4,162 bases of DNA, taken from the IMG/VR virus record IMGVR_UViG_2713896779_000033. The stretch is one strand, 5' to 3'. The notes below the pieces were generated by a model. The model was given only the letters and a program-made list of their open reading frames with translations, was not told the origin of the DNA and ran no database searches. Shown one piece after another: positions 1 to 2,380 of the stretch (within the stretch, counting starts at the first letter, position 1; each line of letters starts with the position of its first letter). This DNA is from a virus. Lineage: Duplodnaviria > Heunggongvirae > Uroviricota > Caudoviricetes. The translations under genes were made by a program, and so were the position numbers.

Positions 1-36
1 TCCTACCCACGTAATATGGACACAGGCCTAAGCGAG
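1..36. repeat. IS3 terminal inverted repeat (right end, IRR), truncated at window edge
   Basis: The window begins tcctacccacgtaatatggacacaggcc, which matches my recollection of the IS3 terminus (TGATCCTACCCAC…) minus the first 3 nt. The exact IR length is from memory and not verified. Confidence 0.5.
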
Positions 37-947
37 GTTCTGGTTTTCAAATTGTTCCGGACTGAGGCCGCCACACCAACTGTGCCGCCGCCACCGATTG
101 TAATCACATTCGATATAATTAAACACCGTTGCCCGCATTATTTCCCGGCTGATAAAGTGTTCTCCATGGATACATTCCACTTTCAGCGAATGAAAGAAGC
201 TTTCCACGCAGGCATTATCGTAGCAGCAACCTTTTGCGCTCATACTTCCACGCAGATTATGCCGCTTCAGTTGCGCCTGATAATCTGCTGAACAGTACTG
301 GCCTCCACGGTCCGTGTGAACGATAACGTTCCGGGGCCTCTTACGCCGCCACAGCGCCATCTGCAGGGCATCGCAGGCCAGTTGCGCCGTCATGCGTGGC
401 GACATTGACCAGCCAATAACGGCACGTGACCACAGGTCAATGACCACTGCCAGATACAGCCAGCCTTCATCTGTANNNNNNNNNNNNNNNNNNNNNNNNN
501 NNNNNNNNNNNNNNNNNNNNNNNNNGTACGTAAGTACGTGATGTCTCCTGCCCACTTCTGGTTCGGGCCACTGGCGTAAAAATCCTGCTCCAACAGATTT
601 TCTGACACAGGCAGGCCGTGTGCGCGGTAGCTGACCGGGCTGAACTTCCGGGAGGCCTTTGCCCTCAGTCCCTGACGGCGCAGGCTTGCCGCCACGGTTT
701 TTACGTTAAAGGGGTAACCCTGAGCACGCAGTTCATCCGTCAGGCGTGGGGCACCGTAACGCTGTTTTGACCGGGTAAAAGCCGCGAGGACAACGCTGTC
801 GCAGTGTTGGCGGAACTGCTGACGCGTGCTTATCCTTGTCCGCCGCTGACACCACGTATACCAGCCGCTGCGGGCCACCCGGAGCACGCGGCACATTGCT
901 TTGATGCTGAACTCAGCCTGATGTTTTTCAATAAAGACATACTTCAT
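28..947 (-). CDS. insF: IS3 OrfB transposase (InsF-like, DDE integrase domain); reading frame interrupted by the N-run at 476-525
   Basis: Track ORFs 390..947(-) and 28..555(-) are two pieces of one protein (…GDITYLR | [19 protein letters not shown]…). They fall in different frames only because the gap adds about 53 nt (50 N plus a duplicated 'tac'). Start ATG at 945-947 overlaps the OrfA stop. Confidence 0.9.
476..525. other. Run of 50 N: assembly/scaffold gap inside IS3 orfB
   Basis: Exactly 50 N. Flanks are …tctgta[N50]gtacgtaag…, and the IS3 OrfB protein is contiguous across the gap (ITYLR|TDEGW) with a 3-nt duplication, so the N's are inserted rather than replacing 50 real bases. Confidence 0.9.
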
Positions 948-1233
948 TTCAGGCGCTTCGCGAAGTATGTCGCGGCCTTTTGGAGGATAGCCAGCTCTTC
1001 ATCCCGTTCTGCCAGCTGGCGTTTGAGACGTGCAATCTCGGTAGACATCTCCAGTTCACGTTCAGAAGACGTCTGCTGATTTTGCTGTTTACTGCGCCAG
1101 TTGTAGAGCTGTGATTCATACAGGCTGAGTTCACGGGCTGCGGCAGTAACACCGATGCGTTCAGCAAGCTTCAGGGCTTCACTGCGAAATTCAGGCGAAT
1201 GCTGTTTACGGGGTTTTTTACTGGTTGATACTG
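944..1233 (-). CDS. insE: IS3 OrfA (InsE-like, HTH DNA-binding transposase subunit), 5' end lies in the N-run
   Basis: C-terminal 96 aa read directly (VSTSKKPRK…[13 protein letters not shown]). The track extension to 1459 runs through N's and into unrelated flanking sequence and is an artefact. Confidence 0.88.
977..981 (-). other. Probable -1 programmed ribosomal frameshift slippery site (AAAAG) for the OrfAB fusion transposase
   Basis: Minus-strand sequence …CTC CAA AAG GCC… lies 36 nt upstream of the OrfA stop and OrfB is in the -1 frame. IS3-family elements are known to frameshift at A-rich motifs in this overlap; the exact site is from recall. Confidence 0.45.
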
Positions 1234-1283: not shown

Positions 1284-1468
1284 GAGGAAAGACCTCTGCG
1301 AGGTACGAATCCGAACCGGCCAGACGGAGGTCGCTGTCTTCGTAGCCTACGAACCTGAGGAGTAAGAGACCCGGCGGGGGCGAAATCCCCCGCCACCTCT
1401 GATGTGTCAGGCATCCTCAACGCACCCGCACTTAACCTACTTCGGCGGTTTTTTTTCACGTACTGTGG

Positions 1469-1545
1469 TTGTGAATACGATTGGTATTAGGATATGCTAA
1501 CAACATTAGCTTGACTAATTTTGTATTGACTTGATTTTTGTTAAA
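1469..1545 (+). promoter_or_regulatory. Putative promoter/operator region of the small-ORF/Doc operon, containing tandem TTGACT…TTTTGT direct repeats
   Basis: AT-rich stretch immediately upstream of the RBS at 1562-1569. Two adjacent near-repeats, ttgactaattttgta (1511-1525) and ttgacttgatttttgtta (1526-1543). Possible -35/-10 pairs exist (e.g. TTGTGA 1469-1474 / TATGCT 1493-1498) but none is compelling by eye. Confidence 0.3.
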
Positions 1546-1576
1546 GAACAGGACGGAGAAGTAAGGGGGGCACCCA

Positions 1577-1756
1577 ATGAGCTACGCACTAAAAAAACAC
1601 CCGCGATTGACTATTCCCCCTCGCGATAAAAGCGTTGTGGCAGCTCCGCGCCCGGCTATCGATGAAAATTGCACTCATCGTGAGCAGGTGAAAAATGCTT
1701 TCGATTTCGGTTTTTCTCGTTACGAGAAGGCAATGGAAGAACTTTCAAAAGTGTAA
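1577..1756 (+). CDS. Small ORF (59 aa), candidate antitoxin/partner of the downstream Doc-family toxin; no recognisable family
   Basis: ATG at 1577 preceded by a strong SD (aaggggggcacccaATG). Translation MSYALKKHPRLTIPPRDKSVVAAPRPAIDENCTHREQVKNAFDFGFSRYEKAMEELSKV*, stop TAA at 1754-1756, 18 nt before the toxin ATG and in the same frame. Missing from the ORF track, presumably because it is under the length cutoff. Confidence 0.45.
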   Translation: MSYALKKHPRLTIPPRDKSVVAAPRPAIDENCTHREQVKNAFDFGFSRYEKAMEELSKV

Positions 1757-1774
1757 TGATGGGTATTGTGCTCT

Positions 1775-2260
1775 ATGGCTGAGATTGTTGAAGGAGTGCA
1801 TTACCTTACGGTTGATGATCTTGTTGAAATCAATCGTTCCCTAATTGAATTACAGACGCCAGATGAGCTCGTTGGTGTTCTGAGTCCAGATAACTTAAGT
1901 TCTTCTCAGGCCCGTCCCAGCATGGTTCGATGGTATGAACAGACTAATGACATGTTTGTACTGGCATCGGTATTGATTGAAAGTCTGATTCAGAATCATC
2001 CGTTTGCTAATGCGAACAAACGAACAGCTATGATGGCTGGTTACGTCTTCTTGTTGTTGAATGGCTATGAATTAACAGCACCAGGCGATGAAATCGTGGA
2101 AATGGCAGAGGGACTGGCCTGCAAAACCTATACTCGAGAAGATCTCGAGAACTGGTTGTGTTATTGGTCTCGCGCGTATGACAGCCGGGAATTATGTAAA
2201 ACAGGCGCAACTATTGTTTTGTATGAAACTATCAAGTTTAAAATGGAACAGCAAAACTAA
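1775..2260 (+). CDS. Doc (death-on-curing)/Fic-family toxin, 161 aa from ATG 1775 (track uses TTG at 1766)
   Basis: Contains HPFANANKR (nt 1997-2023), matching the Doc-type Fic motif H-x-F-x-(D/N)-(A/G)-N-K-R found in P1 Doc, rather than the canonical Fic HxFx(D/E)GNGR. Motif position (His ~75) is similar to P1 Doc. Stop TAA at 2258-2260. Confidence 0.85.
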   Translation: MAEIVEGVHYLTVDDLVEINRSLIELQTPDELVGVLSPDNLSSSQARPSMVRWYEQTNDMFVLASVLIESLIQNHPFANANKRTAMMAGYVFLLLNGYELTAPGDEIVEMAEGLACKTYTREDLENWLCYWSRAYDSRELCKTGATIVLYETIKFKMEQQN

Positions 2261-2274
2261 AGGTGCTTCCAATG

Positions 2275-2298
2275 AAAACCCGCTTCGGCGGGTTTTTT
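2275..2298 (+). terminator. Rho-independent terminator downstream of the Doc-family gene
   Basis: aaaaCCCGCttcgGCGGGtttttt: 5-bp GC stem with a TTCG tetraloop followed by a T-run, flanked upstream by A's (possibly bidirectional). Lies 15 nt after the toxin stop. Confidence 0.75.
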
Positions 2299-2380
2299 GT
2301 TGTTTATTTTCGGTGAGTATGATGCATCTGGTTGTACTGATGTGGTTGGCTGATTCTGTTATTCAGGTGGCTTATTGCTG

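Follow-up and report, generated by a model that had tools for sequence, protein, structure and literature searches.

The 4,162-nucleotide stretch analyzed here (the window), taken from the Caudoviricetes record IMGVR_UViG_2713896779_000033 of IMG/VR, is lambdoid or Rac-like prophage DNA of Shiga-toxin-producing Escherichia coli (STEC). In tandem on its plus strand it carries an open reading frame (ORF) for a 59-residue protein (positions 1577 to 1756) and an ORF for a 161-residue Doc-family protein (positions 1775 to 2260), both starting with ATG. We propose that the two genes probably form a type II Doc toxin-antitoxin cassette, which is mobile and which temperate phages carry as cargo; in it, the 59-residue protein would be the cognate antitoxin of the downstream Doc and would act by its C-terminal helix. 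An earlier note, made from the sequence of the window without database searches, had suggested that Doc and this unrecognized partner make up a toxin-antitoxin or abortive-infection unit. All that the note states about the sequence itself was confirmed on checking. The pairing is strongly supported by the linkage of the two genes across genomes, by their correlated divergence, by purifying selection on both of them, and by the layout of their ribosome-binding sites.

Two genes conserved as a unit

Recurrence of small-ORF homologs upstream of Doc homologs in other genomes, which the earlier note had put forward as a check, was found in 116 of 119 loci, in each of which a Doc homolog lies immediately downstream of the small gene. 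These loci were gathered from scans of genome, viral, and metagenome collections plus homolog look-ups, and identity to the window proteins across them ranges from 36 to 100% for the small protein and from 45 to 100% for Doc. The loci span Enterobacterales, Orbaceae, and Pseudomonas, and among the genera represented are Serratia, Kluyvera, Citrobacter, Hafnia, Rosenbergiella, Yersinia, Xenorhabdus, Ewingella, Salmonella, and Pseudomonas. Among the first four homologs, three have a Fic/Doc gene 7 to 18 nucleotides downstream in three unrelated settings (the baseplate cluster of an Ewingella myovirus, a Salmonella prophage in which hok, ParDE, and VapBC genes are neighbors, and a DinI/UmuDC neighborhood), and the fourth (locus L009) is without Doc. 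The pair adjoins the integrase in the isolated temperate Pseudomonas phages Sirocco and LPPA56. Overall, the sequences around it fall into at least 22 upstream and at least 31 downstream clusters, and this many unrelated flank types indicates that the pair moves as a unit. The two proteins also diverge together, with a correlation of r = 0.95 over 68 unique pairs.

Judged from its sequence evolution, the 59-residue ORF is a real gene. It is conserved with a median pairwise dN/dS (ratio of nonsynonymous to synonymous substitution rates) of 0.14, and among 42 distinct nucleotide versions the residues that never change are written with two to six synonymous codons (six for L56; four each for G45, A41, A52, and V59). 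Over the C-terminal 23 residues the mean amino-acid identity is 0.81 versus 0.49 at third codon positions, and over the N-terminal arm motif described below the corresponding values are 0.90 and 0.62. The low dN/dS combined with synonymous freedom at invariant residues argues that selection acts at the level of the protein rather than on an RNA or on a site in the DNA.

The only family match of the small protein (RefSeq WP_000119356.1) is to phrog_2208, annotated as "unknown function," with an E value of 2.7e-42 and coverage of 59/59 residues. No match at E<=1 was obtained with Pfam (the Phd/YefM family PF02604 included), NCBIfam, or PADLOC (PADLOC-DB v2). Searches of the Protein Data Bank (PDB) with the single sequence and with a profile returned nothing meaningful, and the chains of entry 9VZC were unmatched at E<=10; matches to ribosomal protein S25 (E 0.2 to 0.3) and to a RES-domain protein (E 1.1) were judged to be chance. 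Public sources name the protein only "hypothetical protein" or "bacteriophage protein." We found no paper citing WP_000119356 or the Doc accession WP_000818166, neither accession occurs in the accessible part of the NetFlax supplements, and no paper describing the 59-residue protein as an antitoxin family was found. A HMMER profile search of 1.84 billion representative sequences recovered only 39 proteins at E<=0.001, nearly all of which are stand-alone proteins of 44 to 66 residues; the few longer ones have an internal methionine at the family start position. Such stand-alone sizes throughout indicate a minimal family rather than a fragment of a larger protein. On the evidence of these searches, phrog_2208 is thus a small, uncatalogued family, absent from the curated libraries searched, and the view that the partner is not a described antitoxin holds.

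The downstream protein (WP_000818166.1, "type II toxin-antitoxin system death-on-curing family toxin") is, as the earlier note had recognized, of the Doc type. It matches TIGR01550 DOC_P1 with 124.8 bits (cut-off 38.65), the Pfam Fic family PF02661 with 46.4 bits (cut-off 24), and phrog_577, "Doc-like toxin"; its PDB matches are Doc of Enterococcus faecalis (9VZC; E 6.6e-13) and Doc of phage P1 (3K33; E 3e-5). The catalytic motif HPFANANKR is present exactly as reported, at residues H75 to R83 (positions 1997 to 2023, plus strand), where it matches the regular expression HxFx[DN][AG]NKR; the aligned sequences are HCFYNANKR in E. faecalis Doc and HIFNDANKR in P1 Doc. Its residues H75, F77, N79, N81, K82, and R83 are invariant in 31 members of the clade, and the gene is under purifying selection (median dN/dS 0.08). 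By these sequence measures the protein is an ordinary Doc-family member with the Fic fold and an intact catalytic motif. An alternative TTG start at position 1766 would give a protein of 164 residues. What sets the clade apart is a C-terminal extension of about 35 residues, mostly beyond the TIGR01550 match, which covers residues 11 to 130 only. The conserved part of this extension in the Doc-clade alignment reads W127-L-x-x-W-S-R-x-Y-D-S-R-x-L-C141 (positions 2153 to 2197, plus strand), with W127, L128, W131, R133, D136, L140, and C141 invariant.

The arrangement of the two genes is that of a type II system, namely, adjacent, co-oriented small genes with the smaller one first, separated by a short spacer and conserved as a unit. 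The strong ribosome-binding site that the earlier note had assigned to the small ORF is confirmed: its Shine-Dalgarno (SD) sequence, GGAGAAGTAAGGGGGG (positions 1555 to 1570, plus strand), forms a duplex of -11.7 kcal/mol with the 16S anti-SD, versus -3.7 kcal/mol for the weak SD of Doc, and in 37 of 39 unique loci the SD of the small gene is the stronger of the two. A gene with a strong ribosome-binding site followed by one with a weak site is the usual antitoxin-toxin layout of type II systems. The spacer in the window (positions 1757 to 1774, plus strand) is 18 nucleotides long, and those of other loci are mostly about 2 to 20 nucleotides; a few larger values reflect an approximate call of the Doc start in diverged loci. 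The TAA stop codon of the small ORF is followed immediately by an in-frame TGA, and the two ORFs share one frame. They are separated only by a tandem TAA-TGA and five sense codons, and a double read-through would give a fusion protein. Spacers differ in length from locus to locus, often by values that are not multiples of three in total, so the single-frame arrangement is probably incidental.

The earlier note had described the module as having its own upstream AT-rich region and its own terminator. The AT-richness and the terminator are both there; a promoter of its own, discussed below, was not found by consensus scan. The upstream intergenic region (positions 1457 to 1576, plus strand), which lies between the end of the hokD transcript and the small ORF and is presumed to hold the promoter and regulatory elements, has a GC content of 0.39, falling to 0.30 at positions 1500 to 1555, versus 0.43 to 0.46 in the two genes. 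It is identical in O157 F6294 and O121 RM8352. On the other side, a terminator scan identified an intrinsic terminator 14 nucleotides past the Doc stop codon (positions 2274 to 2307, plus strand), which consists of the stem-loop GAAAACCCGC-TTCG-GCGGGTTTTT (positions 2274 to 2297; 10 pairs, 5 of them G-C, and a loop of 4) and a T-rich tail. The only Rfam match, to rsmX at positions 2209 to 2298, covering the 3' end of Doc and the terminator, reached 34.9 bits versus a threshold of 56 (E 0.0005) and probably arose by chance from the hairpin.

Predicted form of the 59-residue protein and a proposed mechanism

A Pro/Arg-rich N-terminal half followed by a likely helical C terminus had been read from the sequence, and structure prediction agrees with this description. 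The AlphaFold2 model, built on a 33-sequence alignment, is extended before residue 34, with only a 3-residue turn there, and has a predicted amphipathic helix at residues 34 to 57 (positions 1676 to 1747, plus strand; core QVKNAFDFGFSRYEKAMEELSKV). The helix is modeled with a predicted local distance difference test (pLDDT) score of 79 to 89 and the whole with a predicted template modeling score of 0.35. The hydrophobic moment of the helix is 0.46, versus 0.20 +/- 0.10 for shuffled sequences (p ~0.01). At the C terminus the family consensus is QVxNAFxxxFxRYEKAxEELSKV; this segment hardly varies among close homologs, and two of its residues, A41 and L56, never change in the family as a whole. 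The N-terminal half contains a conserved arm motif, R10-L-x-I-P-P-R-D-K18 (positions 1604 to 1630, plus strand; consensus (R/K)-hydrophobic-x-I-P-x-R-D-K), in which I13, P14, and R16 are at least 90% conserved among 33 family members that are 38 to 80% identical to the window protein. The arm motif is predicted to be nonhelical, with a pLDDT of about 83 for the block. As modeled, the small protein has no ribbon-helix-helix, AbrB, helix-turn-helix, or Phd/YefM-like DNA-binding fold.

Studies of known Doc antitoxins give this predicted helix a putative function as the Doc-binding, neutralizing element. A 22-residue C-terminal peptide of P1 Phd (residues 52 to 73) alone binds Doc with high affinity and inhibits it, with F56 and L70 as "gatekeeper" residues (PMC9207808), and the "Phd-C" element is portable between antitoxin scaffolds (PMC10440598). 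The Phd proteins of E. faecalis and P1 share a bent-helix-in-groove mode of binding without detectable sequence similarity (PMC13034048), which means that this mode does not need sequence conservation. The hydrophobic positions F42, F46, Y49, M53, and L56 of the 59-residue protein, together with its 3-residue tail, are spaced like positions 56, 60, 63, 67, and 70 of P1 Phd and its tail. We keep this register match as a lead and not as evidence of homology: by analogy, the 59-residue protein probably works like Phd-C, and we do not claim that it is a Phd.

The closest parallels differ from the pair in several respects. P1 Phd-Doc (PDB 3K33 and 3DD7) is likewise a phage-borne two-gene operon with the antitoxin first and a Doc with the motif HxFx(D/N)(A/G)NKR, and the last 22 or so residues of P1 Phd form a helix, as is predicted for the end of the 59-residue protein, with hydrophobic residues at i, +4, +7, +11, and +14 and the chain end 3 residues later. 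However, Phd (73 residues) has a folded N-terminal Phd/YefM DNA-binding domain that autoregulates the operon, which the 59-residue protein is predicted to lack, and P1 Doc, a distant match, has 126 residues and not 161 with a conserved C-terminal extension. E. faecalis Doc is the closest solved Doc by sequence and shares the N at motif position 5; its Phd places a bent C-terminal helix on the concave surface of Doc but has an N-terminal beta-sheet DNA-binding domain and promotes Doc dimerization (PMC13034048). In PanA(Phd-C)-Doc of Corynebacterium doosanense, a NetFlax system, a short portable helical neutralizer is fused to a globular Panacea domain, and SUMO-stabilized Phd-C alone neutralizes Doc (PMC10440598). 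The 59-residue protein looks like a Phd-C-type element with only a short arm, a likeness in concept for which we claim no sequence relationship, and it differs in being a stand-alone protein with a conserved unstructured arm.

Further afield, PaaA2 and epsilon are likewise small antitoxins without a DNA-binding domain, and PaaA2 is described as highly flexible and is encoded on an O157 prophage (PMC5086665, PMC8630535); paaR2-paaA2-parE2 and omega-epsilon-zeta are, however, three-gene operons with a dedicated repressor and the toxins ParE and zeta, whereas the pair described here has no third gene. Class I Fic pairs (VbhT-VbhA and FicT-FicA) also place a small helical protein next to a Fic-fold enzyme as its inhibitor, the role we suggest here. 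They combine an AMPylating GNGR motif with an inhibitory (S/T)xxxE(G/N) helix, whereas the Doc in the window has the kinase-type NKR, and a regular-expression search found the (S/T)xxxE(G/N) motif in neither the 59-residue protein, from which the earlier note had already reported it missing, nor Doc.

By homology with P1 Doc, the toxin would be a Fic-fold kinase that arrests translation by phosphorylating elongation factor Tu (EF-Tu). The C-terminal helix of the 59-residue protein, like the C-terminal segments of P1 and E. faecalis Phd, would most likely fold upon binding into the concave groove of Doc and hold the toxin inactive. The N-terminal arm might provide a second contact or serve as a handle for proteolysis; if it is a contact, the W127-C141 segment of the Doc extension is a candidate docking site. 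A strong antitoxin ribosome-binding site, a short spacer, and a weak toxin site would keep the antitoxin in excess. The prophage could benefit through its own stabilization, through the exclusion of other phages, or through both. We infer toxicity, the EF-Tu target, direct binding, the groove-binding mode, and the lability of the antitoxin.

A more speculative extension, which we regard as improbable, is that the arm (IPxRDK, with D, N, S, T, or E after the near-invariant Arg) acts as a pseudosubstrate in the Doc substrate site and that the copies of the small protein without Doc (L009, L100, and L101) serve phages as counter-defense against the Doc immunity of a resident prophage. The arm bears a weak likeness to the GGR-T382 loop of EF-Tu. 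If a two-site inhibitor and anti-Doc copies of this kind did exist, the family would be both half of a defense system and a tool of anti-defense.

Counterevidence and alternative explanations

Several results weigh against a Phd-C-like antitoxin in a self-contained cassette. An hhalign comparison of the 33-sequence family profile with an 11-sequence profile of P1-type Phd gave a probability of 0.9% over 8 aligned columns, in line with the earlier statement that the small protein does not resemble Phd. The Phd register is the best of 38 ungapped offsets, but it is weak (end-anchored, shuffle p = 0.03). Covariation between the two proteins, calculated as mutual information with average product correction on the 68 unique pairs, was diffuse and dominated by phylogeny, with no contact signal. 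The AlphaFold model of the Doc monomer was discarded, since it came from a shallow alignment (at least 63% identity) and, with a mean pLDDT of 54, was too poor for a fold search or inspection of the groove. Regarding regulation, the consensus scan detected no sigma-70 promoter in the upstream region, and positions 1440 to 1600 contain no direct repeat or nearby palindrome, so no operator candidate. The upstream DNA cannot be aligned with that of the Ewingella, Salmonella, and other contexts.

Three family members without a downstream Doc, all in phage-like contigs (L009:859-1041, L100:1036-1194, and L101:2100-2249), also run counter to strict pairing. A tail-fibre-like gene precedes one of them and a replication-initiator-like gene another, and the third overlaps (ATGA) a gene resembling phrog_289, "GTP-binding domain," which by eye looks SLOG/DUF2493-like. 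The contigs of L100 and L101 end within the downstream gene. These copies could be orphan "anti-Doc" antitoxins of phages or partner swaps.

The alternative that survives best concerns only the biological role and is compatible with the toxin-antitoxin mechanism. It is possible, if less probable than the role in a toxin-antitoxin cassette proposed above, that the pair is mainly anti-phage, acting by abortive infection or superinfection exclusion: an infecting phage would deplete or displace the small protein, and Doc would then stop translation. This would suit the cargo positions that the pair occupies in temperate phages, which are adjacent to hokD within the nin region, alongside hok, ParDE, and VapBC in Salmonella, beside the integrase and attachment site in Pseudomonas, and inside a baseplate cluster, and many toxin-antitoxin systems do defend against phages (PMC10440598). 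PADLOC (v2, SoFic included), however, gave for Doc only weak, sub-significant matches (E of at least 0.0019) to the candidates PDC-S23 and PDC-S05 and, as stated above, the small protein had no match. We found no publication that reports Doc-based defense for this Doc clade, and Rousset et al. (2022) mention neither Doc nor Fic as whole words.

Linkage and co-divergence would be expected of any obligate partner, which leaves some room, though little, for a small protein that does not inhibit Doc and is instead a cofactor, a specificity or targeting subunit, or a leader peptide, with Doc perhaps being a host-takeover enzyme of the phage. The short spacer suggests translational coupling, and the category to which PHROGs assigns Doc-like proteins is "moron, auxiliary metabolic gene and host takeover," both of which would fit such a role. 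In a leader peptide, however, one would not expect a stretch of 23 residues whose amino acids are near-invariant while their synonymous codons change freely, and a small gene with a strong ribosome-binding site ahead of a toxin gene with a weak one is the antitoxin-toxin order. Moreover, in every characterized case Doc is inhibited by the protein encoded upstream of it, through a helix at the C terminus of that protein (PMC9207808, PMC10440598, PMC13034048).

The 59-residue ORF occupies the position of phd, and the C-terminal hydrophobic register resembles the neutralizing segment of Phd. That it is a degenerate Phd/YefM or another classical antitoxin that has lost its N-terminal DNA-binding domain is nevertheless very unlikely. 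Besides the lack of a PF02604 match and the hhalign result given above, the family is uniformly 44 to 66 residues long in Enterobacterales and Pseudomonas alike, and purifying selection acts on an N-terminal motif that is conserved in it and is its own, which is not a pattern of decay. Least likely of all is membership in a three-component system like paaR2-paaA2-parE2 of the O157 prophage CP-933P, in which a separate regulator would supply DNA binding: the predicted lack of a DNA-binding fold is indeed shared with PaaA2 and epsilon, each of which is encoded in an operon with a regulator as the third gene (PMC5086665), but no third gene travels with the pair among the flank clusters counted above, whose members (for example, hokD, baseplate genes, integrase, and DinI) are unrelated neighbors.

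A mobile two-gene toxin-antitoxin cassette is therefore the reading we favor, and its implications are specific ones. Doc toxins are annotated automatically in thousands of genomes. Assigning phrog_2208 to an entire Doc clade as its cognate partner would correct the annotation of a gene that has been left as "hypothetical." The novelty is modest, as the toxin is ordinary, the architecture is type II, Leplae et al. noted many Doc-superfamily toxins beside unclassified partners in 2011 (PMC3141249), and NetFlax recorded extensive swapping of antitoxin partners (PMC10440598). What is most likely new, as far as sequence comparison and modeling can indicate, is a minimal two-part antitoxin family that lacks a DNA-binding domain and is dedicated to one Doc clade. 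With one helix and a short arm, no predicted DNA-binding domain, and no companion regulator, the protein would be close to the minimal size of an antitoxin. It would offer a clean natural test of the minimum required to restrain Doc and of type II control without an autoregulating antitoxin, and it is relevant to published efforts to design Doc-inhibiting peptides derived from Phd (PMC9207808, PMC10728895). The general picture of toxin-antitoxin biology would not change.

Prophage setting and distribution

Positions 1440 to 2320 of the window are 100% identical to O121 and O157:H7 chromosomes. This segment is present in 134 of 5,426 complete E. coli genomes, mostly STEC (O157:H7 and O121), and is chromosomal in every case. 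The setting described in the earlier note, with an IS3 on one side and prophage late-regulatory genes on the other, was recovered. To the left lie an IS3 element (positions 1 to 1233, minus strand), annotated in an identical O121 genome, and the 3' part of hokD (positions 1284 to 1365), whose stop codon ends at 1365 and whose transcript ends at a T-run near position 1456. To the right of the terminator, the genes given are, in order, a 57-residue ORF, DUF1367, YbcO/DUF1364, and a DUF1133/Q-like gene. The 57-residue ORF (positions 2489 to 2662), between the terminator and DUF1367, matches phrog_340, annotated as "unknown function" (E 1e-18), and RefSeq has only a partial pseudogene there (78 nucleotides, "missing C-terminus"). 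This ORF may be under-annotated or truncated.

Two runs of 50 N each (positions 476 to 525 and 1234 to 1283) are masks that do not preserve the real length. The second replaces 186 nucleotides of the otherwise identical O121 RM8352 genome, comprising the end of IS3, the hokD leader, and the first ~90 nucleotides of hokD, so that colinearity with the real genome is lost at window positions left of 1284. In the O121 lineage (L120:2006-3426) hokD is intact and the end of IS3 lies about 46 nucleotides upstream of its start codon, within the hok leader, whereas O157:H7 F6294 has the same prophage region without IS3. The insertion cuts hokD off from its upstream control region, and hokD may be silenced or deregulated in the lineage bearing IS3.

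A Salmonella enterica prophage (L004:3496-6009) has four adjoining toxin-antitoxin modules, namely, hok, the small-protein/Doc pair, ParDE, and VapBC, and in E. coli the pair likewise comes directly after hokD. This site, with the replication genes on one side and the nin region on the other, appears to be a hotspot of addiction or defense cargo. Outside the Enterobacterales, phage Sirocco carries the pair adjacent to its integrase region and to a tRNA-Ser. In LPPA56 the two genes have no annotation other than "hypothetical protein." The pair is also widespread in Pseudomonas aeruginosa (L102, L103, L121, and L122), where one 90%-identity cluster occurs on >1,000 contigs.

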